A stretch of 64,000 bases of DNA from Patescibacteria group bacterium (GCA_041651015.1 JBAZKA010000001.1:62000-125999), one strand, 5' to 3'; positions 1,596-63,400 are shown, counted from the first letter of the stretch. Program-made: numbers and translations. Notes: generated by a model not told the origin, from the letters alone.

Positions 1596-1607
1596 TATAA
1601 AATATTT

Positions 1608-16240: not shown

Positions 16241-16246
16241 AAAAGT

Positions 16247-17569: not shown

Positions 17570-17824
17570 TAAATTGTTCCTCGTTTTTTCTGAATAAAAA
17601 ATTTGTTCAGAAAAAAGAGAGAGTAATTTGTTTATTAGGTCTTTGTAAAGGTCGAGGGATCATGAGATCTCACCTAGATCTCTGTGTAGCGGGGACGCGC
17701 GGTTCCGACTATTTCTTTAGAAATAATCCGGACTGTGCGAAAACCGCTTAGCCCGTTTTCCGTTGACGTTAGTCCGCCAGCCGGTGGACTGATGCGCATC
17801 GGGCTCGGGTATATAATATTTATT

Positions 17825-42258: not shown

Positions 42259-42287
42259 TTTACTTTTAACTTGCCGCGAAGCGGCGG

Positions 42288-42681
42288 TGGAGATGGCGAG
42301 AGTCGAACTCGCGTCCAGATGGCCACGCCACAGCCGTCTACATGCTTAGTTCTCTTATTTTTAACCAAACTGTATTCAGAGAACGAAAATTCGTTTGGCG
42401 TGCCGGCTTTGCCTTTCAATTACTTCACCTCCGGCTCGGTTGGTAATCTACGCCTGATGATTTGCGCCGCGTTTAGTTACCAGGTGTGGCTAAGGCGACG
42501 GAAGCGGCAATTAAGCCGCGACAGGAGCAAAACTCATCGCCGGGCTAAAAGCTCGAGCAATGGATGTTTTGACTTTTGAAAATAAGTTGGCACTTATTAT
42601 TTGGTCCATGTATTTACGAGGGTTGGACCGACCTCGGCATGCGAACTATAACGCCGGTCTCTGTCAAAGCCCGGCATCCCC
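42288..42681 (-). ncRNA. ssrA: tmRNA (ssrA)
   Basis: Minus strand starts GGGGATGCCGGGCTTTGACAGAGACCGG... and ends ...GGACGCGAGTTCGACTCTCGCCATCTCCA (tRNA-like T-arm and acceptor). A candidate tag ORF beginning at nt 91 reads GCC AAC ... GTC GCG GCT TAA (ends ...FAPVAA-stop). Lies 2 nt downstream of the smpB stop. Confidence 0.85.
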
Positions 42682-48600: not shown

Positions 48601-49987
48601 GCCGGCTTGGGAAAACATCTCGCGTAAAAGCGGCGGCGCAATCATGAGTAAAGATTGGACAAAATACCAAAACGACATCGCTTTGATGCGTAAAAATTTG
48701 AACGAAGGTAAATTTGACACAGATCCGCTAACCAAAATTCGCGTGGAAAATTTATCATCGCGCTTTGAGCGCATGATGATTGAACGCGGCAAAGTGGGTA
48801 AAAAATTGGTGGCGGAAATTGCCGCGGATTTGAACAAGCAGTTAAGTGATTACAACACTGTCGCCAAAAAACACGAAAAAAGTTTGATGAAAATTTTTGG
48901 CATCAAAGACCGCCGTACGGTTTTCGTTCGGGCCGGCGCGGTGGTAGGCGCAGTTTTTGGATATTTTATGTCCCAAGGCGGTTGGCATAAAATTATGTCG
49001 TTGTTTAATAACGAACCGCCGGTCGGGCAAACGATTGCTTTCAAAGATCAGGATTTACCCGCTTTGCATCGCACTCCGGGCGTATCAATAACCAAAGAGG
49101 AGCAGTTTTCTATGAGGGAAGTGCCCGCTGAGCCGGTTGCCCGTCATCACGTCACGCATCAAACGGCTCGCCGCGCGGAAGAAATTTTGTCTGCACCAAC
49201 GGCCGTTCAGACTGCATCGCCGATTCCGGAAAATCCGTATGGCAATAATGGCGGTAATGATCTGATTGAAGAGGAATTACAAAAAGTAAAAATTTCTCAC
49301 GAGGTTGACTCGGATATTTTTGAACATTTTGATCGTTCGGAGCATCCGCGTTTAAGCGATGAAAATTACCAACGCATGTTGAAAATTTATTCCGAATCCG
49401 GTTCGGAAAAAGCGCGAGATTATTTGGATTCCATTGAACACGGCCGCGGACACGCTGATAGATTGGATTCAATTAAACACAAATTTGGATCACGCATGGA
49501 CGAAGCGGTGAACAAGCAAGCCGAACAAATTAAAAATCAGATGAATGAGTCGCCGAGGAGTGCGACAAATCGTGTTATGTCCGAATTGCCGGTTGAGCGC
49601 GGTACCGAATTTATTATTAATGAGGCTGATGCAGACGCAGATGCCGGAGTCGAGGATGGAGGTGTGGTGGAAACTGATGCGGGCGCTGCTGACGCGCAAC
49701 GCGAGGCCTCGGTAAAAAAAGCCTTGGCGCACGCGCGTGAACAATCCGCTCAAGCGCACTCCATTGCCGAAGATCGTTTTCAAAGAGGGGTAGACCAACT
49801 TGGGTCAAATGCGCATCAGGCTTATGATTGGTTGAATGAGCGGGTGAATGATGCAAATTTAGCCCCGGATCAATCTGTTAAAATAAAGGACTTGATGGAT
49901 CAATTTAAACAGAGTGTCAGAAGTGGCAAAATTTCGCCATCGTTGATGAACGAAATAAATCGCGAGATGACGGCACACGACATATAA
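45665..49987 (+). CDS. Giant (1440 aa) coiled-coil protein with internal Gly/Ala-rich hydrophobic segments (hypothetical)
   Basis: Long K/E-rich heptad-like sequence; hydrophobic glycine-zipper-like stretches (VGAVGASIAARIGLGVGLGVVSAPVVAATGGAASVVVGAGMVG; GGALSGAGLGLMIEG). Confidence 0.5.
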   Translation: MSNMPKKIEREFLSDDLETLAMTDHEEFGKRVYSISDKLADKMSAARKTRDQWATDAPKQKKRRKNFYEKMDGGDLVMVIIKANDAVRDLISLQYSSSSKRDANREDEIIKEAVKAAVNLENALHEAEELDFEKKIPAGEQFNEHGFKEKLADMEIEVTRGSARLQKYKNIHAQFKNTPSFALYSNEFVRQLNDFDHAINQAESLAAELKTDIDDMNDLLSDDNASEKELKVRIADLEKKQKNIADVVAKIETDTPEMNKEYEQKLKFYNRIFGAARQLNEFKKGPDFDLLPNGRKIVFELLHRAQKIQDQQLTDEEIQDFENEVAKKVFNAVDKIKSEQQAVREAEAAKTEADKVEAENQKEIEKLSTEYRLPIRIESDQIKKMSEELKPLIKFAEYAGSTAGADLDIDPSKIALVKSVERNIWQAGLNIMDLSEAFSGQSKMSLAEIRKRIADYDAEFKAAKNNFDEAMEIIDGVRTRMVHNLRAEFSAVRLSKEHITDREEAILRGLEAMLRNTKDLTWRDIEDVKFILKKNVLAPMGESIKKSLEAGVETQPDLVKPKAEKSAEEMLTGAFPKDESTPSKPEEIKLTRKEIIAEIGEMYKNEGVINLNSQEILDVLQPKDIEAMIEHLRADAMAKSDGNSGEFKRILRESLNKDLLKSLSDETRDKIGEAVIEQTYALLKGAVDAESRAEILRLQTSKAEKFARVGAVGASIAARIGLGVGLGVVSAPVVAATGGAASVVVGAGMVGMNKAIDRLSETAPVKKIKSFFGNLLKRNRPAIDEARVIESTAKATITPEMLANVLSGQLRENTSEELRYRIETFSQLKKSAEHTLSPDAIGKFASSLDDMSKDFYQNSFDYLTLKYADQNLSPETISVVARLMTAEINTNQKNEMNTAEAAEKKPTAVKVMEKITKIKSHSVGAFFFGGCMSLALAEGPAVARVVGGALSGAGLGLMIEGRMRVSADKKIIDKNKELLPAWENISRKSGGAIMSKDWTKYQNDIALMRKNLNEGKFDTDPLTKIRVENLSSRFERMMIERGKVGKKLVAEIAADLNKQLSDYNTVAKKHEKSLMKIFGIKDRRTVFVRAGAVVGAVFGYFMSQGGWHKIMSLFNNEPPVGQTIAFKDQDLPALHRTPGVSITKEEQFSMREVPAEPVARHHVTHQTARRAEEILSAPTAVQTASPIPENPYGNNGGNDLIEEELQKVKISHEVDSDIFEHFDRSEHPRLSDENYQRMLKIYSESGSEKARDYLDSIEHGRGHADRLDSIKHKFGSRMDEAVNKQAEQIKNQMNESPRSATNRVMSELPVERGTEFIINEADADADAGVEDGGVVETDAGAADAQREASVKKALAHAREQSAQAHSIAEDRFQRGVDQLGSNAHQAYDWLNERVNDANLAPDQSVKIKDLMDQFKQSVRSGKISPSLMNEINREMTAHDI

Positions 49988-50040
49988 TTTTCCGCAAAAA
50001 TAGTAACAAAAGACGCGCTTCTCAGCGCGCCTTTTTGCTA

Positions 50041-50069
50041 TTGACAATTATTTAAAATTGTGTTATATT
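50041..50069 (+). promoter_or_regulatory. Sigma70 promoter (family member 1 of 4)
   Basis: TTGACA, 17-bp spacer ATTATTTAAAATTGTGT, TATATT (TGt extended -10). Confidence 0.55.
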
Positions 50070-50245
50070 CACTTGCTGTGCGCATTGCGCGTATTAGTAT
50101 TTTGCTCATTACAATTGGTAGGTTTGATATAAATTTTCGTTCCGAATATAGCGAAGAATACATAAATTCTTGGTTGTGTTCGGAACGACAAAGACAAAAC
50201 AAACTGCGCCCGGCTTAAAACGCCAGGCCAAAAAAGGAGAAAAAA

Positions 50246-50848
50246 ATGGATGAAGTTAAAAAACCGACTTTAGGTACGGATGATCCGGAGGTACTCGCCG
50301 CACTCGCCGCGAAAAAGGCCACGACTGGCAAAGGAGGCACTTCGACCAAGACGGTCAAGGATGCGCTACCGTCCGCCGCGTCATCGATGTCGGTACGATC
50401 AAATGCGGTCGCTGGAGTAATTTTAGTGGGCATTGTGTTCGTCATCGTCATGGGCGGCTTCTTCGTCTACAGCGGGGTAAAAAGCATGCGCGCAGAAGAG
50501 TTTACACCTTCTTCCACCACAGTCGCAGGACTGAACAAACCGTCGACGCCCGTCACCGCTTCTTCCGCGGTCAGCATGAAGTTGGTGATGAACAATCGGT
50601 GTGTCTCTTTGTACGAGGGGCAGACCAAGGGCTTTCTACCGACGGACGTCAGCTGCCTGAACGACAAAGAGTTTAACGGCTATCTCGTTCGCGACATCGT
50701 GAACGAAGATCCGAAAAAACTGTCCCTGTTTTGCTACGGACTGTTTCAGGCGGATCGGGCCGCCGGACTCGAGTGCAGCGGTAAGCAATGGGGACAGATT
50801 TATAGCAAGTTGTCCCCGGGCACCTCGTTTCCTTATGCGGCAAAGTAA
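50246..50848 (+). CDS. Membrane-anchored hypothetical protein (start of the higher-GC block)
   Basis: 200 aa; RBS AAAGGAG; N-terminal TM (GVILVGIVFVIVMGGFFVYSGV); Cys-containing C-terminal domain. Confidence 0.45.
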   Translation: MDEVKKPTLGTDDPEVLAALAAKKATTGKGGTSTKTVKDALPSAASSMSVRSNAVAGVILVGIVFVIVMGGFFVYSGVKSMRAEEFTPSSTTVAGLNKPSTPVTASSAVSMKLVMNNRCVSLYEGQTKGFLPTDVSCLNDKEFNGYLVRDIVNEDPKKLSLFCYGLFQADRAAGLECSGKQWGQIYSKLSPGTSFPYAAK

Positions 50849-51086
50849 ACCTACCTTTTTCGGGTGACAGAAAGAATATTCGCATCATTCCGCGAATATC
50901 TGTTGCCCTCCCAATTAACATCCTGATATTTGTCGGGGTGTTTGAGGAAATTAGTTCATTAAAATTCAAAGGTAAAAAATATTTTCATGCAATTTGCGTC
51001 CTTGGTCGATCACCCGAATGATTCGGATGACGCCAAAGGACGTAAACATTTGCGCGTGAATGCGCAACGAAAAAAAGGAAAAGAAA

Positions 51087-52424
51087 ATGAAAAAGAATCT
51101 GATGTCCGTTCTGTTCTTGGTCGTCGTCCTCGGAGCCAACGTCTCCAGCGCCCAACAAATGTCGTCGGTGTCAAATGCCGATAAGTACTGGGCGCCCCAG
51201 GCCATCGCGAACAAAATGTTCGCCGAGGCCCTGTCGTCTCTGCAAACGCAGATGTTGGTCGTGGCGCCGGCCTGCGAAGCGGCAAAGAGCCAAAGCGCGA
51301 GCTGCACTGCGGCCATCAATCAGATGACCGGGCTGAACGAAACGGTTCAAAATACCGCGGCCAAGGTTCGTCGGCGCGACACCGGCCACTTCACGCCGGC
51401 CCAGGAGAAAAGGATCGTGGAGTTGGCGGCGACTGCAAACTCGGCGACCGAGTCAGCACTCATTAGTGCTGACCAAGGCAAGAGCGAGGAAGTTGTTCTG
51501 GCGGCCAAAGATTTGAAGTCCCGTATGGGCAAGTTGGAGGCCAAGGTCGGATCTCTGGATATGAGAGTGACTGACCACGATGAACAACTGGAAGGTCTCC
51601 AGGCAGCAGTGAAAGTGTTGCAAGACAGCGCGGTGGCCAAGGAAGATCCGGAGCTCGCCGAGCAACTCGCAAATCTTTCCGGGAACACAGCCTCAGCCGA
51701 CAAGCAACTCGCGGATCGGATTCTGCTCATCGCCGAACGAGTGCAAGTGATGGAAAACGCGGCCATGACAAAATCCGATTCCACGGTAGACAAGGCGCAA
51801 TTGGATGCGGCCATGAAAGAAATGGCCGGCGCGTTCAGTAGACGAGTCGCTTCGGTTGAGGCGAAGGCGGAAAACGCTGACGCCAAGGCGGAGCGGGCGA
51901 TGTCGCTCGCCCGGACAAAAAATTCCACCGCCATCATATTGGAGGTGGCGGGCATGGGCGGCGCCTGGTCGCCGTTCATTAAGCAAGTCACTTACGGCGG
52001 AGTCGGTGCCTACCTATCCAAGGGATGGTTGAGGCTCGGTGGTTCGTTTGACCCCGGGTTGGCCTATGTGGACGGGGAGGCGACGTTCGCGTTTACGAAC
52101 AAGCTGGAAGCCTGCTACGCGTGGAAATATGCGTGGCTTGGAGTCTTTAGCGGATCGTATGCCCTTGGCCTGCCGTATAGCGACTCGAACGAGAAGTATG
52201 GCTTCTCCTTCGGCGCAATCGCACGGTTCGTCCTCCCCATGGGCAACACCAACTGGTTTTATGGGTTGGAACTCTACGGAGGCCCGGCTTACGAATCCAA
52301 GTGGGTGCCCAAGGGTCCACCCGCGGGAGCCGCGCCCGGCGCGGTGTACGATGATGAAGAATACAAAACCTTCTTCAAACCGTTTACCGGCGGTGTGCGA
52401 GTATTCATCGATTTTAACCTTTGA
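51087..52424 (+). CDS. Secreted protein: signal peptide + long coiled-coil + C-terminal beta-rich domain (paralog of 53730-54818)
   Basis: ORF track from 51060; Met at 51087 gives MKKNLMSVLFLVVVLGANVSSAQQ; C-terminal alternating hydrophobic/Gly pattern ending GGVRVFIDFNL. Confidence 0.5.
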   Translation: MKKNLMSVLFLVVVLGANVSSAQQMSSVSNADKYWAPQAIANKMFAEALSSLQTQMLVVAPACEAAKSQSASCTAAINQMTGLNETVQNTAAKVRRRDTGHFTPAQEKRIVELAATANSATESALISADQGKSEEVVLAAKDLKSRMGKLEAKVGSLDMRVTDHDEQLEGLQAAVKVLQDSAVAKEDPELAEQLANLSGNTASADKQLADRILLIAERVQVMENAAMTKSDSTVDKAQLDAAMKEMAGAFSRRVASVEAKAENADAKAERAMSLARTKNSTAIILEVAGMGGAWSPFIKQVTYGGVGAYLSKGWLRLGGSFDPGLAYVDGEATFAFTNKLEACYAWKYAWLGVFSGSYALGLPYSDSNEKYGFSFGAIARFVLPMGNTNWFYGLELYGGPAYESKWVPKGPPAGAAPGAVYDDEEYKTFFKPFTGGVRVFIDFNL

Positions 52425-52681
52425 ACATTTATCCGGGCGCTTGAATAAAATCCGTATCCTACCTTTACGGAATCAAGCGCCCTCCTCACCTTTGAACATA
52501 AGATTTGTTTTCAGAGGCGAGAGAGAAAAAATATATCAAAAAACTCAGCCATAGCGGCCGAGTTTTTTGTTTGAAGTTTTGTATTTTTACTTTTCAGAAA
52601 ACTTGTGTTGCCACCAGTGTTCTGAAGAGCCGAGGACGAATTCGTGTGAGTGAATTCGTCCTCGCAAAGAGCTTGGCGCCA

Positions 52682-53113
52682 TCACGGCGCGTTGACGAGC
52701 GAGGCGCATTGGTCACGCCCGGGCGTACCGACCGAGCCGCAACACCAGTCAATGGCCTGCAACTCAGTGATGGCCGGCAACCCGCGAGCGGGTCGCGTCC
52801 GCGCTTCACGGAAGCAGGCGACGTACGCGACGTCGTCCGGGTTGACGGTCGCTGCTTGCGGCAGCACCGCGTTCGGTGCCGAAGAGGTTTTTGCCGCCGG
52901 GCAATCGCTGCCGTCGCAGTTGGTTTCGCGGGTAACCATCCCCTTGACATTGTTCATGTCGAGAACGAGTTTGGTGATGTAACGGTACATCCCCGCGTCG
53001 TAGAAGATGAACCCGAAAAGAATCACCGTACACGCCCAAGGGAACACTTTGAGGAACCTTTCCATTATGCTATCTCCTTTGTGTTGTTTGACTTTTGCCG
53101 TTTTTACAAACAC
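52682..53113 (-). CDS. Small membrane-anchored Cys-rich hypothetical protein (uncertain; high-GC region)
   Basis: TM helix FPWACTVILFGFIFYDAGMY then Cys-containing domain; competes with the overlapping plus-strand ORF 52505-53218, which lacks features. Confidence 0.3.
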   Translation of the reverse strand: MFVKTAKVKQHKGDSIMERFLKVFPWACTVILFGFIFYDAGMYRYITKLVLDMNNVKGMVTRETNCDGSDCPAAKTSSAPNAVLPQAATVNPDDVAYVACFREARTRPARGLPAITELQAIDWCCGSVGTPGRDQCASLVNAP

Positions 53114-53328
53114 CTCGCACCGCGCGAGATGTTCACGTTCAACGGCAAAAATTTTAAAGAACAGAATAATATATCACAAATTGGATTATTTGTCAAATGC
53201 CCCGGGCTCGGCAGATAGAGTGAGGGTCTTGCCCCCGTCACCAATAATAAACATCTATTTGCAGAAAAATCGTTACTGACGACGAGTAAATGCAATATGC
53301 AAATATATTCCCAAAATTGGTGAGGGGC

Positions 53329-53357
53329 TTGACAAAACCCTCAAAATGTGCTATACT
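53329..53357 (+). promoter_or_regulatory. Sigma70 promoter (family member 2 of 4)
   Basis: TTGACA, 17-bp spacer AAACCCTCAAAATGTGC, TATACT (TGc extended -10). Confidence 0.6.
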
Positions 53358-53363
53358 GGTTTT

Positions 53364-53470
53364 AATAAAATTCAAATTGACTTTGATTGCGCAACGAGAG
53401 AGGCGCGGTCAAAGCCCGAAAAAGCCTGAAATATATTTATCGGACTCTCTCATTGTAGAGAGTTTTTGTG
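53364..53470 (+). ncRNA. Candidate small RNA: promoter-proximal ~105-nt unit ending in a GAGAGAG/CTCTCTC hairpin plus T-run (copy 1)
   Basis: CGAGAGAGGCGCGGTCAAAGCCCGAAAAAGCCTG...CGGACTCTCTCATTGTAGAGAGTTTTTGTG, immediately followed by a second identical-type promoter; similar cassette at 57479-57600. Confidence 0.4.
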
Positions 53471-53498
53471 TAATATAAGCCAATCAGGAGGTAGAATG

Positions 53499-53527
53499 TT
53501 GACAAAATAGGCAAAATGTGCTATACT
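53499..53527 (+). promoter_or_regulatory. Sigma70 promoter (family member 3 of 4)
   Basis: TTGACA, 17-bp spacer AAATAGGCAAAATGTGC, TATACT. Confidence 0.6.
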
Positions 53528-53729
53528 TTCATGTTAAATTACAAACAGTTTTTCACCCAATCTTGCGCCTTCTAACAGAGCGGACGCAGGCAGAGTCAAA
53601 AACTCTGGCAGTGAAGCTCTTTTTACTTACAAGGCAGGAATAAAATAAAAAACGTTCGCTACAAAATGGCCGGCCACGGGTCGGTCAGGAAAGCCCTGGC
53701 TCATAGAGCGGGGCATAGGAGAGACGAAG

Positions 53730-54818
53730 ATGAAGACGAAATTGGCATTTGCGATTTTCGCGATGGTGATGGTGGCGACGGGGTCGGCAATGGCGCAATG
53801 GGCGCAGGAGCCGATGGACGATCTAAAGACCCTGCAACAGTGCAGGGCATCGTTCAAAAACGTGTGCGCGCCCTGCGCAAGCGTTTTCGCTTCCGGCCAG
53901 CTGAGTGCCACGTGCACCATGGAAAAGGCACAGGCGTGCGGCGAAGTCTACACCGGCATCTGCGGTCAGACCGCGAAAGCCGCTGCGACAACGTCGCCGT
54001 CCGTGCCGCCGAAGTGCGACGACAGATGTAGGGAGCGTCGCAAGGCCCGACAGGAAAAGTGGAATGCGCTCTTCCTGGACATGGCGGACCTGAAGGTCCG
54101 CGTGGCCGCCCTGGAAAGGAGAGCGGACGAGAACGACACACGCGACGCGGCGAATGCCGCGCACGACAGCGACCAGGACAACCTGATTGCTGGTCTTCGC
54201 AAGGACGTGGACGGCCTCCTGGATTGTCATGGTGAAAATCCGAAGGCGGGTTGCCACCAGGCAATTGAGGAGCAGATCGATGAGGCGAAGAAGGAGGCGA
54301 TGGACTACACGGATATGATGTTCATATCCACCGCCTTCAAGTTCGACCTCGGAGCGGTCGTCCTCGGCTCCACGGATTTCCGAGGGGTTGGGATCATAGC
54401 TGGCGGATTGCGCATTGCTCTTGACTTCGGCGCAACCGATCGGTTCCGTCCCGTTTTCCACGCTTCGGTTGGCGGTGGTCACGGACGGTGGGCAAACGTG
54501 GTTTGGGAAGTCGGCACTTCCCAGGAAATTCGTGTTAACGACAAGGGGACTGTCTGGCTAGGGCCGGCGGTCACCTGGTCACACGAAAACGTCCTGGACG
54601 CCAACTACAACACGTTCCTCGGCCTCGGCCTCTCCCTCAGAGTGTTGTTCCCCGAGAGCCACCACGGGTATTTTACCGCGGCGGTCTTCGGCGGTGACAA
54701 CATGTACTTCGTCCCGGACAAAACGGGCGAGTACGATGAGGTCATGGCCCATCACTTCGGAATTGGGATCCAACTCTCGGTTGGATACTCCATTTTCCAA
54801 GACCTCCGCAAGAAGTAG
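53730..54818 (+). CDS. Secreted protein: signal peptide + Cys-containing N-region + coiled-coil + C-terminal beta-rich domain (paralog of 51087-52424)
   Basis: RBS GGAGAG; MKTKLAFAIFAMVMVATGSAMAQ signal peptide; same architecture as 51087-52424. Confidence 0.5.
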   Translation: MKTKLAFAIFAMVMVATGSAMAQWAQEPMDDLKTLQQCRASFKNVCAPCASVFASGQLSATCTMEKAQACGEVYTGICGQTAKAAATTSPSVPPKCDDRCRERRKARQEKWNALFLDMADLKVRVAALERRADENDTRDAANAAHDSDQDNLIAGLRKDVDGLLDCHGENPKAGCHQAIEEQIDEAKKEAMDYTDMMFISTAFKFDLGAVVLGSTDFRGVGIIAGGLRIALDFGATDRFRPVFHASVGGGHGRWANVVWEVGTSQEIRVNDKGTVWLGPAVTWSHENVLDANYNTFLGLGLSLRVLFPESHHGYFTAAVFGGDNMYFVPDKTGEYDEVMAHHFGIGIQLSVGYSIFQDLRKK

Positions 54819-55007
54819 TAGTTCTCCTGTCTTTTACGGTCAGGGTATTCGCAAGAATATCCTGACCGACCTTATCTTGATCAAAAATGGTTTTGGTCAA
54901 GTAGGGGAAAATACTTAGTTAGTTGCTTGACAATTAAATTAAGGGTTAGAAAAACGTTCGTGGACAAAGCCAGCGCGCGGCGTTGGTTTCAAAAAAGGGA
55001 GAACAAA

Positions 55008-56378
55008 ATGAAGAAGTTTTACGGAATGATGATTGTTGCTATGATGGCGGTCGGATGCAACGAAGGCTACGGCATCGGCGATAAGTTTTTCGCTGAAGTC
55101 GACGCCGGTTCGGACACCGACACGGACACCGACACCGATACGGACACGGATAGCGACAGCGACACCGATTCCGATACGGACACGGACACCGACACGGATA
55201 CCGATACCGACACCGATTCCGATACGGACACGGACACCGACACGGATACCGATACCGATACGGATACGGACACGGGCGAGTGCGAGGATGGTGAAGAGCA
55301 GTGTGACGGAAACATGGTTCAGGTTTGCGGCGACGACCACGAGTGGGCGAACTGGGACGAGTGTCTCGCGTCTGCTCACAAGGAGTGTGTCGAGGCCAGC
55401 TCGACCTCCGCGAACTGCGACTGCGTCTCCGGTTACCACCTGTCCGCAGGCAACTGTGTCGCGGACACGGTCGTGATCTGCACCGCTGGCTACGAGGAAT
55501 GTGACACGGATGGAAACGTTCTGGTTTGCAACTCGGCCGGCACTGCGTGGGTGGTGGACGACACTTGCCTCGCCACGAACCATGAAGAGTGTATCGAGGC
55601 CAGCTCGACCTCCGCGAACTGCGACTGCGTCTCCGGTTACCACCTGTCCGCAGGCAATTGTGTCGCGGACACGGTCGTGGTCTGCACGGCCGGCAACAAG
55701 GAGTGCGACACGGCCGGCAACGTTCTGGTTTGCAACTCGGCCGGCACTGCGTGGGTGGTGGACGACACTTGTCTCGCCTCCGCTCACGAGAAGTGCGTCG
55801 AGACCAGCTTGACCTCTGCCTCGTGCCAGTGCGTGGATGGGTACTATCTGTCCGTGGGTGTCTGCATCGCGGACACCGACACTGACACCGACACTTCGGT
55901 CGAATGCACGGACGACGGTGGCGAGTGCGCCTTGGGTTACGAATGTAAGGCGGGGCATTGTGAAATGCCCTGCGACTGGGAGAACCCTTGTGACATGGCC
56001 TCCGGTTTAGAATGCTTTTTGACCGGCAAGGATCCCGACCAGAACTGGAAGTTCTCCGGGATCTGTCTTCCCATGCCGGCGGCAACGGGCGAATTCAGTT
56101 CCGTATGGTACTACGACATGGAACTGGAGAACGATGAGGACACGGGTACGTGTGCGTATTACGATACGTACTCTCCGTCCCCGACGGAGTACTCGTCGCC
56201 AGACACCGCCGCGGCCAGCATCATGTGCACCGATAATTCGTCGGTGCCGTGGGTCATGGAGGGCGAGTTCGAAGATCCGAGCACGTCGTCCGCTCGGACC
56301 CACCTGATCGCCCACGGCGATCATAACCACCAGATGACGACTTTCGGGCGTATCCTGTATACGCCCCCCGTCCTCTGA
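55008..56378 (+). CDS. Lipoprotein with (Thr-Asp/Ser-Asp)n tracts and tandem EGF-like Cys-rich modules (ORF track from 54927; Met at 55008 with GGGAG RBS)
   Basis: Lipobox MMAVGC; ~55 residues of TD/SD dipeptide repeats; two and a half near-identical modules containing CDCVSGYHLSAGNC (CxCxxGYxLxxxxC, EGF-like). Confidence 0.6.
   Translation: MKKFYGMMIVAMMAVGCNEGYGIGDKFFAEVDAGSDTDTDTDTDTDTDSDSDTDSDTDTDTDTDTDTDTDSDTDTDTDTDTDTDTDTDTGECEDGEEQCDGNMVQVCGDDHEWANWDECLASAHKECVEASSTSANCDCVSGYHLSAGNCVADTVVICTAGYEECDTDGNVLVCNSAGTAWVVDDTCLATNHEECIEASSTSANCDCVSGYHLSAGNCVADTVVVCTAGNKECDTAGNVLVCNSAGTAWVVDDTCLASAHEKCVETSLTSASCQCVDGYYLSVGVCIADTDTDTDTSVECTDDGGECALGYECKAGHCEMPCDWENPCDMASGLECFLTGKDPDQNWKFSGICLPMPAATGEFSSVWYYDMELENDEDTGTCAYYDTYSPSPTEYSSPDTAAASIMCTDNSSVPWVMEGEFEDPSTSSARTHLIAHGDHNHQMTTFGRILYTPPVL
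55110..55275 (+). repeat. Hexanucleotide (GACACN/GATACG)n microsatellite encoding the TD/SD tract
   Basis: About 27 consecutive GAYWCN hexamers visible in the sequence. Confidence 0.9.
55357..55760 (+). repeat. Tandem ~200-bp near-identical direct repeats encoding the EGF-like modules
   Basis: 55360-55560 and 55570-55760 align with few mismatches. Confidence 0.8.
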
Positions 56379-56486
56379 CATGTTCTTTGAGCCTCGAATT
56401 CCTTTCGAGGTATATGCCCGGGCAGAGCTTATCTGCCCCAATCATATGGCATCATTTATCTCTCAAATGATCCCAGATGTAAACAA

Positions 56487-56518
56487 AAAACTCCGATTCG
56501 TCGGAGTTTTTTGTTTGG
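56487..56518. terminator. Bidirectional terminator between the lipoprotein gene and the methyltransferase gene
   Basis: AAAAAACTCCGA-ttcg-TCGGAGTTTTTTGTTT. Confidence 0.8.
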
Positions 56519-56525
56519 GAAAAAA

Positions 56526-57344
56526 TTATTTTTTTCTAAATATTACACACTTGGTATCAGTGCATTGCTTTGCGTAATTATTGTATTCATCAATTGTCGC
56601 CTTCGGTTGATACATTAGGTAATCAACATTTTTTATTATCTCAACAGCGGGGGAGACGGCTTCAAAAATTTTATCCCACTCAATGTAATCTTCGGGAAAA
56701 ACGTGGATATCACCTTCGCGCTGGTATTTCTTGTTAATAAATAATTTTATGAAAACCGTTTTGACAAAATCCCAAGTTAAAAATTCACCGGTTCGTAAAA
56801 TAAATTTGGTGCGCTCGGCTTTTGTTTGTTTGGTTTTGGCGTTGTATTCGGCGAGGACAACGTCCGGGTACCAGCGGTGTTCGTTGGCTTCATGGTCAAT
56901 GTATATTAGACCGCCCGGTTTTGCTACGCGGATCATTTCTTTGATCGCGGAAATATAATCGGGAATATGGTGCAGCACCGAATACACGGCGACAATATCA
57001 AAGTGGTCATCTTCAAAAGGTAATTTTTTACCGTCAAATAGTGCAGTCTCTATATTGAGCGCCGAGTATTGGTTTTGTAAAATTTCCAATGAAACTGATG
57101 AGAGATCGCAAGCGATAACCTTGGCGCCTTTTTCCGCAAATATTCTACTGAGATTACCGGTGCCGGCGCCGTAATCTAAAACAACCGGAGAGTTTATTTT
57201 TGTTAAACTTATTACCTCGGCAATAGTCTCCCCCAGACGTCTTTGTTCAACCGGATTGTAAATTTCCGTGTGCTTGGTATTGTATATGTAGGCATTACGG
57301 TCGTGTTGTTTGCGATTTTTTGTGATTATATGCTCGTTGGACAT
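56526..57344 (-). CDS. Class I SAM-dependent methyltransferase (Methyltransf_11-like)
   Basis: 272 aa; motif I VLDYGAGTGNLS, post-I acidic (ACDLS), PGGLIYI motif. Confidence 0.8.
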   Translation of the reverse strand: MSNEHIITKNRKQHDRNAYIYNTKHTEIYNPVEQRRLGETIAEVISLTKINSPVVLDYGAGTGNLSRIFAEKGAKVIACDLSSVSLEILQNQYSALNIETALFDGKKLPFEDDHFDIVAVYSVLHHIPDYISAIKEMIRVAKPGGLIYIDHEANEHRWYPDVVLAEYNAKTKQTKAERTKFILRTGEFLTWDFVKTVFIKLFINKKYQREGDIHVFPEDYIEWDKIFEAVSPAVEIIKNVDYLMYQPKATIDEYNNYAKQCTDTKCVIFRKK

Positions 57345-57449
57345 ATTTAGATATTAGTAATAATTTCACCATATATTATAGCCCTTTTTTCTAAAATACA
57401 AAAGTTTTTGCGCTAAATTTGGTGCGGCAGACGAAAAAGGCGCTTGCTA

Positions 57450-57478
57450 TTGACAAAAACTCTAAAACATGCTATTAT
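57450..57478 (+). promoter_or_regulatory. Sigma70 promoter (family member 4 of 4)
   Basis: TTGACA, 17-bp spacer AAAACTCTAAAACATGC, TATTAT. Confidence 0.6.
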
Positions 57479-57700
57479 ATGATGTTAAAATTAAAGGGAC
57501 AAATGCACGCGATTTGACGGTGAGAGAGCCGTAAAATTCGCATAAATTTGAAAAAACTCTCTCACGGGAGTTTTGTTTGAGTGGAGTTGTCGCTCGGATG
57601 CAAATTGTATCAAAGCGACAGGGCCGCCCCCTCAACATGGGTATATCATAGTCATGTTGAGGGGGTTGCTCTCCCTATGCCTTTGCGTTTTATGCGCGTG
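57479..57700 (+). ncRNA. Structured leader / candidate sRNA copy 2 plus a 13-bp perfect hairpin
   Basis: GTGAGAGAG...CTCTCTCACGGGAGTTTTGTTTG is analogous to 53395-53470; hairpin CCCCCTCAACATG...CATGTTGAGGGGG at 57622-57664. Confidence 0.4.
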
Positions 57701-57817
57701 GCCAAAAGAGTTTCTTTGACAATTTAATTATTGGATTTAGTTAGTTTGAGATAAGGAAAACAACCAAATGCGATTTTGGAAATCGCAAAAGATTCCGGAA
57801 ACGGAATGGAGGAAGAA

Positions 57818-60490
57818 ATGGAAAAGAGATTTTTGTTTTGTTTCGTTGCCATCGTCGCGGCTATCGCGTGTTCGCCGAACACACGAGAGCCCCATCAGTC
57901 GGTAGTGCCGCCGGATTCAGATTCGTCTACGTCCGACACGGATACCGACACCGACACGGACACAGATTCCGACACAGATTCCGATTCGGATAGCGACAGC
58001 GATTCCGACACGGACACGGACACCGACACCGACACGGACAGTGATTCGGATACGGACAGCGACACGGATACGGATTCGGACACAGATTCGGATTCGGATA
58101 CGGATAGCGACACGGATTCGGACACGGACGTGGACGCCGGCACGGATGCCGGCACCGATGGCGGGACCGATGGCGGTCTCGACGGCGGTTCGGATACCGA
58201 CACGGATACGGATAGCGATTCCGATTCTGACACAGACTCGGATAGCGACACGGATTCGGACGCCGGAACCGACGGTGGCGTAGAGCCGACCGAGTGCTCC
58301 AGTGGCGTTTGCTGCGACACGGTGACCGGACTCTTCAAGGACGATACCGTCATTTGCGGGACGTCGTTAGAGTTGAGGTGCGATGACACCGGTTGCAGCG
58401 CTGACGTTAGGAATGCCTACGTCATTACCAGCTGTCCCGGATATTCCGAGGACTGCGAAGGAATAGAGGAGGTGTTTACCAGCAGCGTCGTGGACGACTG
58501 CGGTGACAATGAAACCTGCGAAGCTTCCACCGCTCTCTGCGTCGAATGTGAGTTCGGCTGTGAAGACGATTCCTTTGGAGTCGGAACGTGCAGCGAAGAA
58601 CCCATCGTCATTGACGCCGGAGTGGACTCCGGAACTTCGGACACCGACACCGACACGGACAGTGATTCGGATACGGACAGCGACACGGATACGGATTCGG
58701 ACACAGATTCGGATTCGGATACGGATAGCGACACGGATTCGGATACGGACGTGGACGCCGGCACGGATGCCGGCACCGATGGCGGGACCGATGGCGGTCT
58801 CGACGGCGGTTCGGATACCGACACGGATACGGATAGCGATTCCGATTCTGACACAGACTCGGATAGCGACACGGATTCGGACGCCGGAACCGACGGTGGC
58901 GTAGAGCCTCCGACCGAGTGCGTGGCTGACGACCCGTGCTGTGACAGCGAGGGGTTCTACCTCGCCAACGGCACCGAGTGCGACGGTGGTACTGTGCTCT
59001 CGATCTGCGAGAGCGGGTACTTCTGTGACGGCGTCGGCGATTGCATGCTCGAGTACGTCCCCGCGTCGGACAATAAGGTCTGCGATAGCGATATCGCCGA
59101 CCTTTGTGACGCCGTGGATTACTGCGACGGTAGCGGAGGTTGCCCAGACGCGGTCCTGTCGTACGGCGATGATTGTCATGCATCCGAAGGGGCGTGTGAC
59201 GTTCAAGACATCTGCAACGGGCTCGGCAAGGATTGTCCTGATGAGCTTCTCGTCGGCGATACCTGCCGACCGGCCGTTGTTGGTGGATGCGACATCGCGG
59301 AGACCTGTTCTGGTTCTTCTCCGGACTGTCCGGCTGACGTGGTTGCTTTGGCAACGACTGTCTGCCGTGCGGCATCCGGGGTTTGCGATAAGGCCGAGAA
59401 CTGCACAGGCAGTTCGGCTACTTGCCCGGCGAACACGTTTGAGTCGGCCGCCACAGTGTGCGCGTCCAGTTACGTGTATCAGTGCAACGGCAATCTGTGC
59501 GGGTCCGATGCTCAACGGCGTCTGGTGAGGCAGTATTGTACTGGTAGCGCGGCTGCTTGCAGTGGCACTATCTACTACAACCCCTGGACCACCATCGCCA
59601 ACTGCGACGCATCGGCCATCTGCATTTCCACTTCTACCTCAGCCATGTGTTCCGAGTGCGGTTACGCTTGCCAGGACATCCCGGCAGGGACGTGTGTTGG
59701 TGAAGAAGGACAGCCGTGTGCCGAAGCTCCTTTCGAGGAGTGCGAAAGCGACGACCTGTTCTGCGACACCGACGACGTCTGCAGTGATGCTCCGGACGGC
59801 GGCATTGCCGACGGTGGCGTAGACGGTGGTTCCGATACGGACACCGACGCAGATACCGACACGGACACGGATACGGATAGCGATTCGGACACGGATGCCG
59901 ATGCCGGCCTTGATGGCGGCTCGGATACGGACACCGATAGCGACACGGATTCCGATTCCGACAGCGATGCCGGTACTGACACGGACACTGAGACTGACAC
60001 GGATACCGACACGGGCACCGAAGGAACTTTCTGTCTTGAAAAAGCAGACTGTTCCGAGGGAGAGTACTGCAATCTGGAGACGAGCCTCTGTACGCTCGTG
60101 CCGGAGTTCCCGTTACCTGCGGGACAGTACTTCTATTGCTGGGGATACAACATCACTCATGATCCCAGCAATGTGGTGTCGCAGTGCACGACAAGCTCTA
60201 CTTCCACTTGCACCTACTACGATCCGGCGGCGTCACAGCAGTATTCCGCCACGGTGTCGCTCTACTGCATCTTGGATCAGTACGGCACCACGTCCACCCC
60301 CACCTGTCCCGCGGTGCAGGACATCGGCGAGTGTTGCATCTCCGGGCAGACTGATTTCGTTGCGCGGTACGCCGCGCCGGAAGAATGCAACGACGCTGAC
60401 ACGGACAACGATCCGGTTGGTGGATGTTCTTCCTACCGCCAATGCTTGAGGGGAAGTGATGGTCACTTCCTCGCCGAAGGCCTGTTCTAG
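57818..60490 (+). CDS. Large lipoprotein with three (TD/SD)n-GTDGG tracts and multiple Cys-rich repeat modules (ORF track from 57776; Met at 57818 with GGAGGAAG RBS)
   Basis: Lipobox VAAIACS; Asp-rich dipeptide tracts; ~24-aa Cys motifs (CDxxxxCDGxGxCPD) repeated at least 6 times; about 890 aa. Confidence 0.6.
58021..58905 (+). repeat. Two ~270-bp near-perfect direct repeats (58021-58290 and 58636-58905) inside the lipoprotein gene, each largely composed of GAYWCN hexamers
   Basis: The two copies differ at about one position by eye; a third related tract lies at 59823-60020. Confidence 0.9.
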
Positions 60491-60614
60491 GCCTTTCCCG
60501 CCTTGTTCTAAAAAATCCAATAATCCGTTCATTCCCAAAAATAGCCCCGGACAGTCCGGGGCAATCACCATGAAATCGTCTTGACTCTCTCCTTGACGAT
60601 TTCAGTTGATATAC

Positions 60615-60650
60615 AAAACCCGCTATTAACTTGGCGGGTTTTGTGTTTTT
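60615..60650 (+). terminator. Rho-independent terminator after the lipoprotein gene
   Basis: AAAACCCGC-tattaacttg-GCGGGTTTT followed by GTGTTTTT. Confidence 0.75.
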
Positions 60651-60693
60651 ATAGTATAATAATGAATAGATTGCCGCGGCCTTTGGCCTCGCA

Positions 60694-62214
60694 ATGACAA
60701 AAAATATGAACAAACTATTTCCTCTCAACACCGAAACAAAACGGATTTTGTTTTGGACTATTGTCAGCATCGCGGTCATGTCCACCTATATGATAGCCGG
60801 AATGATTTTCGGGTCATCCATGATAATGCTGCTCTTCGCGCTGATAGTGGTTTTTTTATCCACGGTCATGCACCCGCAAGTTGGCATCTATACAATTTTG
60901 ATTTGTACCATGTGGTTTGAGCGATATTTTACGCTCGCGCCCATCACCATTGGCAGTGTTGTCTATAAAATTTATCCGCTGGATTTTTGTATTTTATTTT
61001 TAGCTTTGAGTTTGGTCGCCAGATTGGTAGAAGGAAAAATTAAATTTAAAACCCAAGCGCTTGACTGGTTTATTTTGGTTTTTGGCGGAGTGTGCACCTT
61101 GAGTTTGTTATCGTCGTATTGGCGCGGGTTGGATATGGCCGTGGCTGTCGGTACCTACAAAAATTATTTTCTTTACGCTGTTTTATACGTGATACTTACT
61201 ATCGTTATGCAGACCAAGGAGGAGTGGGTCAGGCTTCTGAACTGGCTTATCGCGGCCGGCTTTGGTTTATTCTTTTTCCTTTTTTACGGACTAATTGCTG
61301 GCCATGGACTTTGGAGTGAATATACTCCGTTATCCACGTCCGGCGAACGCCTGATCGCCGGCACCCATATTTTTTATTTGATGTTATTTTTATTTTGGCT
61401 CGCGGCCGCTTATCTCTACCGTGAAGTCAAAGAAAAAAATAAATGGCAATCAGTGGCTGTGATTGTGGGCATGTCGCTGGCCGGTCTCGCGCTGGTAGTC
61501 TCGCTTGTGCGCCATCTGTGGTTGGCCGTGCCAACTGTTTTAATTTTTTGGATTATATTTTTACCGACTATGCGCCGTCGGTTAAAATTTTTAATTTTGA
61601 TCGGAATAGTCGGCGCGCTGACCGCGGTGTTGACTTTTATTTTTATTTATTCCGGACGCGTTATTCACGGCTCCAATGCCGGGCAGACTTTTGCCAATAC
61701 ATCGGAGGTTTTGAGTCAGAGAACTGACATAGAAAATGTGACCAGCGGAAACGACTCCAGTTTTTCTTGGCGTTTGGCGGTCTGGAAAGTCGGTTTTTCC
61801 GCTTGGTTAACGCATCCATTTTTTGGTTTGGGATTGGGCCATCGTATCACCGGGTTGATAAATAATTGGCCTTTTGATATCGCCCTGCGCGAGATACACA
61901 ATGATTATCTGGCTATGCTTTACCAGATGGGCGTGGTCGGGTTGATTGCCGTCTTAGAATTCTTGGTTTTCCTTTGGTATATTTTTTTTCACGATAGAAG
62001 TTTCTTACTTGATAATGAATCGCTTGACGGCCGATTGTTCTTTTCGTTTTGGAGCATGGCGATATTATTTATGATTGGTTTTCTTGTCTCGGTTTATTGG
62101 GATGTAAATTTCTTTGTCATTTGGTGGTGGCTCGCCATTGCCGGCCTGCGGTTTGTTTGCATGCGACAACCCGTCACCACCAAAATTTTTTATGAAGATA
62201 CTTCAGATAAATAA
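60694..62214 (+). CDS. O-antigen ligase/polymerase-family (Wzy_C) membrane protein
   Basis: 506 aa, about 12 TM; conserved H...NDYLAMLYQMGVVG motif in a periplasmic loop. Confidence 0.7.
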   Translation: MTKNMNKLFPLNTETKRILFWTIVSIAVMSTYMIAGMIFGSSMIMLLFALIVVFLSTVMHPQVGIYTILICTMWFERYFTLAPITIGSVVYKIYPLDFCILFLALSLVARLVEGKIKFKTQALDWFILVFGGVCTLSLLSSYWRGLDMAVAVGTYKNYFLYAVLYVILTIVMQTKEEWVRLLNWLIAAGFGLFFFLFYGLIAGHGLWSEYTPLSTSGERLIAGTHIFYLMLFLFWLAAAYLYREVKEKNKWQSVAVIVGMSLAGLALVVSLVRHLWLAVPTVLIFWIIFLPTMRRRLKFLILIGIVGALTAVLTFIFIYSGRVIHGSNAGQTFANTSEVLSQRTDIENVTSGNDSSFSWRLAVWKVGFSAWLTHPFFGLGLGHRITGLINNWPFDIALREIHNDYLAMLYQMGVVGLIAVLEFLVFLWYIFFHDRSFLLDNESLDGRLFFSFWSMAILFMIGFLVSVYWDVNFFVIWWWLAIAGLRFVCMRQPVTTKIFYEDTSDK

Positions 62215-63400
62215 ATTTTTTTATCGCCGAGGCGGAGCCGACCATCATTTTATGGATTTGGTTGATTTGTTGCACGAAAAAGGCGAAGGAGTATTTGTCT
62301 TTTCCATGCGCGACAAACGCAATAAGTCGAGCGATTACGAAAAATATTTTGTCTCCAACATTGAATTCGGTAAATTAAATTTGGCCGCTCTTCTGCGTCC
62401 GTTTAGAGTGATATATTCTTTTGAAGCGGCGAGAAAATTGCGTCGTTTAATTCGCGAGGCTCGTCCGGATATCGCGCACGTGCATTTGATTTACCATCAT
62501 CTGTCGCCATCTGTTTTGGCGGTTCTGAAACAAGAAAAAATTCCCGTGGTTATGACGATTCATGATTGGAAACCGCTTTGTCCGAATTATCTGATGTTTA
62601 CCGAAGGCGCGATTTGTGAACGTTGCCGCGGTGGTCATTATGTTCAGGCGGCCAAGCATCGTTGTATCCACAATTCTTGTCCGCAAAGTATTTGGGCCGC
62701 GTTTGAGGCTTATGTTTATCATGCTAAAAATTATTACGAAGAGTATGTGGATTTATATATTGCCCCGAGCGAATTTGTAAAAACAATGTTTATTAAATGG
62801 GGTTTTCCGGCGGACAAAATTCTGGTGTTGCCTCACTTTTTATCGCCGTCAATTGTCCGCGAACAAACCTCAATTACAGCGCCGGCTAAACCGGAGTTTG
62901 TTTTTGTCGGGCGTCTGAACGCGGAAAAGGGGATTATGACTTTGGCAAGAAAATGGGCGAGCGAAAAAATTTTATATCCTCTGCATGTATTTGGCGACGG
63001 GCCGCTCGCGCCTCAACTTAGAAATTTCGTGGAGGACAATCGATTGCGAAATATTATTTTACACGGCGCAGTACCGCGCGAGGAAATCAGCCAACGTTTG
63101 CGCGCCATGACCGCATTGATTGTGCCAAGTGAGTGGTATGAAATTTTTGGTTTGGTGGCGATTGAAGCATGGGCGCAAGGTGTGCCGATTATTACCTCAA
63201 ATTTCGGCGCTTTACCCGAGCTGGTTAAAAATTCCGGCGCCGGTATTGTGATGGATTTTAAAAATGATAAACTTTCCGATGTCCTGTCCGCCATTACCGA
63301 CCAAAAATATCGCGATAACGCCGTATCGTATATGTCCGGCCATCACTTGGCTGATGAATATTACCGAAAATTATTACATATTTATAAAATGGTTGTGTAG
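62192..63400 (+). CDS. Family 4 glycosyltransferase (ORF track from 62114; Met at 62192 = MKILQINKFFYRRGG)
   Basis: GT4/GT-B pattern including EWYEIFGLVAIEAWAQGVPII (E-x7-E); overlaps the ligase gene end by 23 nt. Confidence 0.8.
   Translation: MKILQINKFFYRRGGADHHFMDLVDLLHEKGEGVFVFSMRDKRNKSSDYEKYFVSNIEFGKLNLAALLRPFRVIYSFEAARKLRRLIREARPDIAHVHLIYHHLSPSVLAVLKQEKIPVVMTIHDWKPLCPNYLMFTEGAICERCRGGHYVQAAKHRCIHNSCPQSIWAAFEAYVYHAKNYYEEYVDLYIAPSEFVKTMFIKWGFPADKILVLPHFLSPSIVREQTSITAPAKPEFVFVGRLNAEKGIMTLARKWASEKILYPLHVFGDGPLAPQLRNFVEDNRLRNIILHGAVPREEISQRLRAMTALIVPSEWYEIFGLVAIEAWAQGVPIITSNFGALPELVKNSGAGIVMDFKNDKLSDVLSAITDQKYRDNAVSYMSGHHLADEYYRKLLHIYKMVV

Follow-up and report, generated by a model that had tools for sequence, protein, structure and literature searches.

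The stretch of DNA analyzed here (hereafter, the window) comprises 64,000 nucleotides of a Patescibacteria group bacterium (GCA_041651015.1, JBAZKA010000001.1:62000-125999) and carries, between 50.2 and 60.5 kb, a cluster of six GC-rich genes, which is the subject of this study. Exact protein matches, deposited as MFA5127466-73, placed the window in the metagenome-assembled genome (MAG) with the locus tags WC457_* (proteins MFA5127430-73, 286,515-bp contig). All six GC-rich genes encode exported proteins, which have a signal peptide, a lipobox or an N-terminal membrane anchor, and an LPx[TSA]G motif was found in none of the six. An earlier note on this DNA had described the region as a laterally acquired or fast-evolving cell-surface attachment cassette with its own expression signals; the surface location agrees with the six exported products, whereas attachment itself is a matter of interpretation.

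Gene 1 (50246–50848, + strand; GC content at third codon positions, GC3, 0.64) encodes a 200-aa protein with one membrane span (approximately residues 47–81) and four cysteines in the C-terminal part; it had no family match and corresponds to the membrane-anchored product noticed earlier. The product of gene 2 (51087–52424, +; GC3 0.70) has 445 aa; its signal peptide is followed by an Ala/Glu/Lys-rich region, which by our reading is helical or coiled-coil, and by a C-terminal domain of ~165 aa that is rich in Gly and aromatic residues; a word-indexed search of 5.8 billion clustered proteins returned only this protein itself. Gene 3 (52682–53065, −; GC3 0.77), which the earlier note had missed, encodes 127 aa with an N-terminal membrane anchor and seven cysteines. 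Gene 4 (53730–54818, +; GC3 0.74) encodes a 362-aa protein with a signal peptide, a helical N-terminal part containing 10 cysteines and a beta-rich C-terminal domain of ~165 aa. Genes 2 and 4 had been considered paralogous; however, BLASTP aligned their N-terminal halves only (E = 0.009), the C-terminal domains gave nothing significant and the hhalign probability was 0.1%, so that only the architecture is alike. By eye, the C-terminal domains of both proteins contain eight amphipathic Gly/aromatic-rich strands (beta-periodicity z = 1.9 and 0.9), and the last strand of the gene 4 product ends in ...VGYSIF, five residues from the C-terminus. The single-sequence AlphaFold2 model of the gene 4 product had a predicted local distance difference test score (pLDDT) of 39 overall and 25–32 in the C-terminal domain, which is too low for the fold to be read. 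In Pfam searches at E up to 10, neither the beta domains of genes 2 and 4 nor the small membrane-anchored proteins had a meaningful match, and no outer-membrane protein barrel family appeared. The six proteins of the cluster all contain cysteine and are presumably disulfide-bonded.

Genes 5 and 6 encode two lipoproteins. Lipoprotein 1 (gene 5, 55008–56378, +; GC3 0.77) has 456 aa, the lipobox AVGC and a net charge of −85, and lipoprotein 2 (gene 6, 57818–60490, +) has 890 aa, the lipobox AIAC, 68 cysteines and a net charge of −205; the starts given here are corrected ones. A PROSITE PS51257-type pattern, applied as a regular expression (Cys within residues 15–35, uncharged h-region, N-terminal Lys or Arg), was found in both lipoproteins and in both of their homologues on contig L006, which is described below. 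The 64-kb window itself does not encode the Lgt/LspA processing machinery. Lipoprotein 1 comprises a (Thr/Ser-Asp) tract of ~60 aa, three 68-aa modules with eight cysteines each, encoded by a 204-nt tandem repeat (86–89% identical), and a Cys-rich C-terminal domain. Lipoprotein 2 comprises three long (Thr/Ser-Asp)/DAGTD tracts, Cys module A, a core of four disintegrin-like repeats and a Cys-rich C-terminal domain; two of the tracts share an exact 271-nt duplication (58017–58287 and 58638–58908), which covers an acidic tract and the start of a Cys module. The X-Asp tracts are 34–88 residues long, contain 36–44% Asp and are underlain by hexanucleotide-based repeats. Thus, two lipoproteins with (Thr/Ser-Asp)n tracts and Cys-rich modules, as reported in the earlier note, are indeed present. 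It should be noted that the Logan and ENA short-read assemblies of the same locus both break in the Thr-Asp (TD) repeats, and the tract lengths in the MAG contig are therefore still provisional.

The Cys-rich modules had also been compared to calcium-binding epidermal growth factor (EGF) domains. Each lipoprotein 1 module carries in its second half the motif C-x-C-x2-G-Y-x6-C, which resembles the C4-x-C5...C6 part of EGF, but the Pfam match stayed below the gathering score of 21.5, with 20.9 bits for the whole protein and at most ~16 bits per module, and it covered profile positions 8–29 only; in addition, the L006 homologue is largely devoid of the motif. The sequence searches of the PDB with both lipoprotein cores and a module profile gave no matches, and no homologue was found in a word-indexed search with the Cys-rich part of lipoprotein 1. 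EGF_CA was not among the Pfam families listed for lipoprotein 1 at E up to 1, and the library searches of the cluster proteins gave no match to a calcium-binding family (EF-hand, thrombospondin type 3 repeat, EGF_CA). The NCBIfam MSCRAMM matches reached 35–140 bits, with cut-offs of 999–2500, were confined to the dipeptide tracts and are compositional. In Sdr proteins, Ca2+ binding maps to the B repeats and not to the Ser-Asp (SD) tract, and the SD region of ClfA is a wall-spanning stalk. In the lipoproteins, as in the Sdr/Clf proteins, a long run of X-Asp dipeptides separates the functional domains from the anchor in the membrane or wall; however, the anchor here is an N-terminal lipid instead of a C-terminal LPXTG motif, A and B domains are absent, and the tracts are mainly Thr-Asp. 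Consequently, neither EGF-like modules nor calcium binding through such modules or Sdr-like tracts was retained.

The core of lipoprotein 2 is built of four copies of a repeat of the type C-x5-C-D-x-x-E/D-x-C-x-G-x3-4-C-P-x-D. Two of the four fit the full consensus C-R-x3-G-x-C-D-x-A-E-x-C-x-G-x-S-x2-C-P-x-D, the other two being degenerate. Searching with the core only yielded 221 homologues (best E = 3e-50), and all listed ones carry PF00200. Approximately one-quarter of the 221 carry a name; the named ones were mostly from Binatia and Myxococcota/'Deltaproteobacteria', with a few from oomycetes and one from a Margulisiibacteriota MAG, and none was named as Patescibacteria. Four homologue contigs were inspected and had a GC content of 0.63–0.72 and genes of diderm bacteria (resistance-nodulation-division (RND) efflux, OmpA, BamD-like). 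In contrast to such GC-rich diderms, the Patescibacterium studied here is low in GC. In the AlphaFold2 model obtained with a 72-sequence alignment, the pLDDT was 86–97 over residues 60–220, i.e., the repeats, and the best Foldseek matches in the PDB were nearly all disintegrin domains of ADAM or snake-venom proteins (probability up to 0.99, at weak E-values). As judged from the repeat sequence and the predicted model, the modules of lipoprotein 2 appear disintegrin-like and not EGF-like. The repeat is shared with the PF00200 proteins of bacteria and oomycetes, and the model is best matched by ADAM and snake-venom disintegrin domains, but lipoprotein 2 matches the C-terminal third of the profile only, carries tandem copies, has no metalloprotease and, by inspection, has no RGD-type loop. 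A literature search on disintegrin in Patescibacteria found nothing relevant.

The 1-kb GC profile of the window showed values of 0.55–0.60 at 51–53, 54–56 and 58–60 kb versus ~0.44 elsewhere. The earlier description of the region from 50.2 to 60.5 kb as GC-rich holds for the six coding sequences (CDSs; GC 0.54–0.65), but all spacers have a GC content of 0.35–0.42, and a gene for a class I S-adenosylmethionine methyltransferase lying between the lipoprotein genes (56526–57344, −) is of native composition (GC 0.40, GC3 0.43). At 200-bp resolution, the limits of the shift coincide with the start and stop codons of the individual genes, which makes the block a mosaic instead of a uniform island. 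The GC3 of the six cluster genes was 0.64–0.77 versus 0.42–0.57 in the 31 other genes of the window, and this shift therefore concerns codon usage and not amino acid content alone; GC at the first and second codon positions (GC1 and GC2) was raised as well. The six genes thus differ from their flanks in the composition and codon-usage comparison that the earlier note had suggested. The TD repeats or the amino acid content as the only source of the shift were ruled out, GC3 being high in all six genes, including four without repeats.

When 1.84 billion representative proteins were searched exhaustively by HMMER with the gene 4 product, there was exactly one relative (P0130; E = 1.7e-59, identity of 44% by HMMER and 42% by MAFFT), in which the C-terminal beta-rich domain is conserved. 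Its 4-kb contig (L006, JGI 3300037067) is syntenic with the window from 53.0 to 58.0 kb. This contig contains, in order, the start of gene 3 on the minus strand with a divergent promoter, a promoter with RNA element A, a promoter with a leader, and the gene 4 homologue; these are followed by a conserved leader with lipoprotein 1, a promoter with RNA element B, and lipoprotein 2, in whose TD repeat the contig ends. A metagenome scan with a 20-mer of RNA element A gave three matches and led to a third lineage, represented by contig L008, which spans the region from gene 3 to the start of gene 4. Contigs L007 and L009 were discarded as chance matches of the 20-mer in GC-rich contigs. An open reading frame (ORF) homologous to gene 3 is located at the same position in L008 (its start only in L006), as assigned by position and by eye without a score. 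L006 and, in part, L008 thus have the order gene 3 (−), RNA element A, gene 4, lipoprotein 1, RNA element B, lipoprotein 2 in common with the window.

The compositional mosaic is alike in L006, where the GC content is 0.60–0.66 in the CDSs and 0.35–0.47 in the spacers and GC3 is 0.78–0.83. Between the window and L006, the synonymous divergence (dS) reached 1.81 in gene 4 and 1.37 in the lipoprotein 1 gene, the nonsynonymous divergence (dN) was 0.55–0.60, and the protein identity was 41–42%, in line with the proposal of fast-evolving proteins. Because the same order and mosaic occur at a dS of 1.4–1.8, the cluster of genes 3–6 and its compositional peculiarity predate the split of the three lineages. 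Meanwhile, the promoter and leader DNA is ~80% identical between the window and L006 or L008, and the regulatory DNA is thus much more constrained than the proteins. The methyltransferase gene is absent from the corresponding position in L006; it was either inserted in the lineage of the window or lost in the other one and, given also its native composition, does not belong to the cassette in which the earlier note had included it.

An assembly or binning artefact, in which foreign GC-rich reads would have been joined into an AT-rich contig, could be considered, since short-read assemblies break at the TD repeats. Nevertheless, the NCBI MAG contig, the Logan assembly (SRR8542065) and the ENA assembly (ERZ27247363) contain the same DNA with 100% identity across the junctions, all six genes have their GC switches at the start and stop codons, and the same mosaic recurs in two unrelated metagenomes; the probability of such an artefact is next to negligible.

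Five near-consensus sigma-70 promoters were found in the block. The first (50041–50069, +; TTGACA-17-TGTTATATT, with an extended −10 element) precedes gene 1 and is followed by a leader of ~175 nt. The promoter of RNA element A (53329–53357, +) shares 26 of its 29 bases with L006 and L008. A second promoter at 53499–53527 is followed by the 200-nt leader of gene 4 (together 53499–53729, +), and this leader is conserved in L006 and L008. The promoter of RNA element B (57450–57478, +) is TTGACA-17-TATTAT with an upstream TG and has a counterpart sequence in L006. The fifth, which the earlier note had overlooked, is the divergent promoter of gene 3, starting at 53196 on the minus strand (53168–53196; TTGACA-17-TGATATATT), also with a counterpart sequence in L006. 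The promoters at 50041, 53329, 53499 and 57450 agree with the consensus at 11 of 12 positions and have the TG extension; the form TTGACA-17-TGnTATAYT ascribed to all four holds for the first three, but not for that at 57450. They had also been described as near-identical, whereas they resemble one another only in the hexamers and the A-rich spacer. A strong host-type promoter of this kind stands ahead of four of the six cluster genes; directly upstream of gene 2 and of lipoprotein 1, no near-consensus promoter was found. A scan of the whole window for sites that agree with the consensus at 11 or all 12 positions revealed 17, of which 12 lie outside the block, including perfect 12/12 sites and sites that precede the transfer-messenger RNA (tmRNA) and tRNA-Asp genes. 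Since these 12 further sites exist, contrary to the statement that such promoters are confined to the block, the block promoters are best read as host-type sigma-70 signals.

The leader of lipoprotein 1 is conserved and contains the motif TTGACAATTAAATTA (54927–54941, +) with no good −10 element after it; a similar motif occurs before lipoprotein 2 and in L006. Both lipoprotein genes are thus preceded by a TTGACAATT(A/T)AATTA-like motif without a recognizable −10 element (54927–54941 and 57716–57730, +), and TTGACAATT-containing sequences are located at the matching places of L006 (~1804 and ~3640). Motifs of this type could serve to bind a regulator or to start transcription with an alternative sigma factor, a gene for an extracytoplasmic function (ECF) sigma factor being present at 15680–16240.

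A rival explanation, akin to the view of the earlier note, is that the block is a genomic island which arrived recently and carried strong promoters of its own. The clearly atypical coding GC and GC3, the genes that are orphan or have homologues in other phyla, and the clustering of five strong promoters are in agreement with this. However, the spacers are host-like and a native methyltransferase gene lies inside the block, and promoters of the same type, as stated above, occur throughout the window, so that the idea of own expression signals finds no support. Among the window proteins, no integrase, transposase or phage family was detected with the family libraries and PHROGs, the latter giving nothing relevant; viral-contig scans for RNA element A and for the 362-aa family produced no matches. 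The longest repeat common to the flanks is 10 nt (none of at least 11 nt), no tRNA gene is adjacent, and the nearest tmRNA gene lies at a distance of 7.5 kb, its 3′ end pointing away from the block. Genes 3–6 and the mosaic, moreover, are common to relatives at a near-saturated dS, although only two relatives were found. A recent island is, consequently, very unlikely. As for lateral acquisition in general, a foreign origin is plausible for lipoprotein 2.

The codon usage of the cluster genes bears on another explanation, namely, that they are native genes whose GC3 was raised, without any transfer, by translational selection connected with very high expression or by GC-biased gene conversion in surface-antigen genes that recombine frequently. 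The shift is concentrated at two-fold codons: the fraction of TTC is 0.21 in the other genes and 0.72 in the block genes, that of TAC 0.28 and 0.74, that of AAC 0.31 and 0.74, and that of AAG 0.22 and 0.66, respectively, while at four-fold sites GC increases from 0.65 to 0.73 only. The rise of TTC, AAC and TAC is what selection for C-ending codons predicts, the strong promoters suggest high expression, the high GC3 has been retained in both lineages at near-saturated dS, and the internal repeats together with the exact 271-nt duplication show ongoing recombination. On the other hand, G-ending codons (AAG, GAG, CAG, ACG, TCG) rise as well, and Arg usage spreads to the rare codons AGG and CGG, which optimal-codon selection does not predict. 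The initiation factor IF3 gene has native GC3, and neither the bactofilin gene nor the promoter-equipped gene of an 1184-aa surface protein has the codon pattern of the cluster. GC1 and GC2 are raised too, and the disintegrin-like repeats are distributed in GC-rich phyla. Expression-linked codon selection is thus possible but not favoured, and a wholly native origin of the genes is, in our estimation, unlikely while still deserving serious attention.

The interpretation that we consider somewhat better than evenly probable is that the six genes form an old, conserved, lineage-specific cell-envelope cluster of a small clade of Patescibacteria, which is at least partly of foreign origin, is transcribed from native promoters and is not a recent island. 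The GC-rich coding composition would then stem from an old foreign acquisition that took place before the three sampled lineages split; the donors, at least for the disintegrin-like lipoprotein, would have been GC-rich diderm lineages of the Myxococcota/Binatia type. The spacers would have evolved, or been retained, as native regulatory DNA, and a gene-specific pressure may help to keep GC3 high. The direction and age of the transfer are what we infer from these data.

Several observations weigh against this interpretation. The taxonomic evidence for transfer is limited to gene 6, and identities of 40–50% at the level of repeats name no donor. Within that evidence, the Pfam Disintegrin match reaches 28.2 bits versus a gathering score of 35.1 and covers profile positions 48–75 of 75 only, and the Foldseek E-values are weak (0.04–1) with low TM-scores, because a short single repeat matches part of a domain. 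High GC3 has been kept in two lineages despite a dS of 1.4–1.8, which needs either a donor GC3 of at least 0.9 or a maintaining force; such a force, for example, selection or biased gene conversion, may stand behind the GC3. The shift is strong at two-fold and weak at four-fold sites, whereas simple amelioration predicts otherwise. Genes 1 and 2 lie outside the contigs of both relatives, so that the evidence of conservation concerns genes 3–6, and as L006 and L008 hold the cluster only, the background GC of their genomes is not readable. Furthermore, five of the six proteins match no characterized family, their function being read from sequence alone, and the RNA switch described below is based on five sequences whose shared helix is without compensatory change.

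Two RNA elements are located downstream of block promoters. Element A (53358–53475, +) consists of a hairpin with GAGAGAG in the loop, followed by CUCUCUC as the 5′ half of a terminator and by a U-run, and its 34-nt core is identical in the three lineages. Element B (57479–57582, +) likewise has a GAGAGAG hairpin loop followed by a CUCUCUC terminator hairpin and has a homologue in L006. The copies in the relatives were found at 215–338 and 3434–3545 of L006 and at 675–800 of L008. The pattern GAGAGAG-N25-55-CTCTCTC occurs in the window only in these two elements, with none expected by chance, and both elements fold with z of approximately −3. RNAalifold analysis of five copies from the three lineages showed the GAGAGAG:CUCUCUC helix as the only shared structure, kept in five of five. 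By eye, element B differs from its L006 homologue in one apparent compensatory stem change, A-U to C-G, but RNAalifold did not confirm it. No match to Rfam was obtained for the elements or the leaders at the gathering score, and at E up to 1 there were chance-level matches elsewhere in the block.

These features fit a terminator/antiterminator switch or a small RNA, and the GAGAGAG/CUCUCUC elements may represent an undescribed attenuator or small-RNA family. As in attenuator leader RNAs, the promoter-proximal GAGAGAG can pair with the 5′ half of the CUCUCUC terminator, which would give two mutually exclusive structures; the differences are that the elements have no Rfam family and that a second promoter-like site follows each element, which may therefore be a stand-alone small RNA. 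Under the preferred interpretation, the extra promoter before gene 4 and before lipoprotein 2 would drive a short RNA in which pairing of GAGAGAG with CUCUCUC would act as an attenuator-type switch. The leader of gene 4 (53528–53729, +; 380–599 in L006 and ~840–1090 in L008) is ~80% identical across the three lineages, whereas the protein is 42–44% identical, and it holds a conserved CAGAG-N7-CUCUG hairpin. Another sequence complementary to CUCUCUC is GGAGAGA, which forms the ribosome-binding site of gene 4.

With regard to function, each lipoprotein would be lipid-anchored at its N-terminal Cys, and the polyanionic (Asp-Thr/Ser)n tract would serve, by analogy with the SD region of ClfA, as an extended stalk projecting disulfide-rich modules beyond the wall or S-layer, namely, the disintegrin-like modules of lipoprotein 2 and the eight-Cys modules of lipoprotein 1. 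The partner surface that these modules could bind would most plausibly be that of the presumed episymbiont's host cell. The stalk and adhesion function, as well as attenuation, are roles that we infer for the cluster. The proteins could instead be polyanionic cation-binding or mineral-interacting envelope proteins, or spacers of the wall or S-layer, and not adhesins, which would be compatible with either origin of the genes. The extreme net charges and the high Asp content of the tracts agree with this, and the adjoining Wzy_C-family protein and GT4 glycosyltransferase suggest an envelope-polymer context. However, no EGF_CA, EF-hand or thrombospondin type 3 match supports cation binding, disulfide-rich modules of the disintegrin type are typical of protein–protein recognition (ADAMs, snake-venom proteins), and the rapid divergence of the proteins fits an interaction surface. 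A non-adhesive role is accordingly rather improbable.

A more far-reaching combination of these elements, which we regard as speculative and improbable as a whole, is a host-contact apparatus derived from GC-rich diderms. In it, the products of genes 2 and 4 would end in eight-stranded amphipathic beta-barrel-like domains inserting into the outer membrane of a diderm host, since the symbiont itself is expected to be without an outer membrane. The polyanionic lipoproteins would present the disintegrin-like and eight-Cys modules as ligands, an undescribed GAGAGAG/CUCUCUC attenuator RNA family would gate production, and selection or biased gene conversion would keep the coding sequence GC-rich.

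Large Cys-rich extracellular proteins (mean of 1655 aa) have been proposed to function in attachment in Peribacteria of the Candidate Phyla Radiation (CPR) (Anantharaman et al. 2016, PMC4736985). Both these and the cluster proteins are from CPR bacteria, bear signal peptides, are very rich in Cys and are weakly similar to myxobacterial Cys-rich repeat proteins; attachment is proposed and strain-to-strain variation is found in both. The cluster proteins are, however, smaller (127–890 aa), and the likeness is by description only; in addition, polyanionic Asp-Thr/Ser stalks, a lipid anchor, a syntenic cluster, anomalous coding GC and conserved leader RNAs are found here. Cys-rich surface proteins of CPR bacteria are thus known already, whereas the GC mosaic restricted to coding sequence, seen again in L006, and the well-conserved leader RNAs are unusual. 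Host attachment and exploitation by Patescibacteria are largely obscure, and most of the few candidate surface factors lack annotation. The cluster provides a concrete set of such candidates, the inner part of which is conserved across three lineages, and its lipid-anchored proteins with putative polyanionic stalks bear repeats of the disintegrin-like type, which is otherwise characteristic of Myxococcota and Binatia. The sharp coding/non-coding mosaic may be informative on old gene transfer or on gene-specific compositional forces in reduced genomes, and the leader RNAs are far better conserved than the proteins encoded downstream.

It should also be noted that in the ENA and JGI copies of the locus, gene callers chose antisense ORFs within the GC-rich genes, and because of this, both lipoproteins are missing from a collection of 15 billion proteins. 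In the ENA contig that is the reverse complement of window positions 46526–58264 (L002), antisense ORFs of 339 and 144 aa were called inside lipoprotein 1, and the 362-aa gene is divided between two calls of 245 and 121 aa. In AT-rich CPR genomes, GC-rich genes may thus be systematically miscalled and under-reported, which would inflate their apparent orphan status.

The surroundings of the cluster include housekeeping genes (aminoacyl-tRNA synthetases, LigA, PPDK, BipA and IF3), type IV pilus genes, the tmRNA gene and two tRNA genes, as well as the CPR-typical DUF5667 and DUF5663 proteins near the cluster. Directly upstream, a gene of native composition (45665–49987, +) encodes a 1440-aa protein that has, by eye, hydrophobic Gly/Ala/Val-rich segments and had no family match; the Logan and ENA assemblies of this organism contain an identical copy (called as 1437 aa) next to the cluster. 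Directly downstream (60694–63400, +), the Wzy_C protein (O-antigen ligase/O-oligosaccharyltransferase type) and the GT4 glycosyltransferase are encoded by genes that are also native in composition. No relatives were found in scans of species-representative genomes with the 1440-aa protein and with the Wzy-like protein. Staphylococcal SD repeats are glycosylated by glycosyltransferases and, by analogy, glycosylation of the Thr/Ser-Asp tracts is conceivable given the neighbouring glycosyltransferase.

The ECF sigma gene belongs to a unit at 15680–21289 (+) together with the genes of a DUF5667 protein and of the 1184-aa signal-peptide protein. The latter is rich in Thr, Ser, Ala and Val, and its gene has a strong bias to T- and C-ending codons (T 0.37 and C 0.38 at four-fold sites), a codon regime different from those of both the background and the GC-rich cluster. 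The tmRNA gene (42285–42681, −) has a near-consensus promoter upstream at 42835 and an unusually long predicted tag peptide, ANLFSKVKTSIARAFSPAMSFAPVAA. At the beginning of the window (21–3197, +), two tandem full-length genes encode cofactor-independent phosphoglycerate mutases of 524 and 529 aa.

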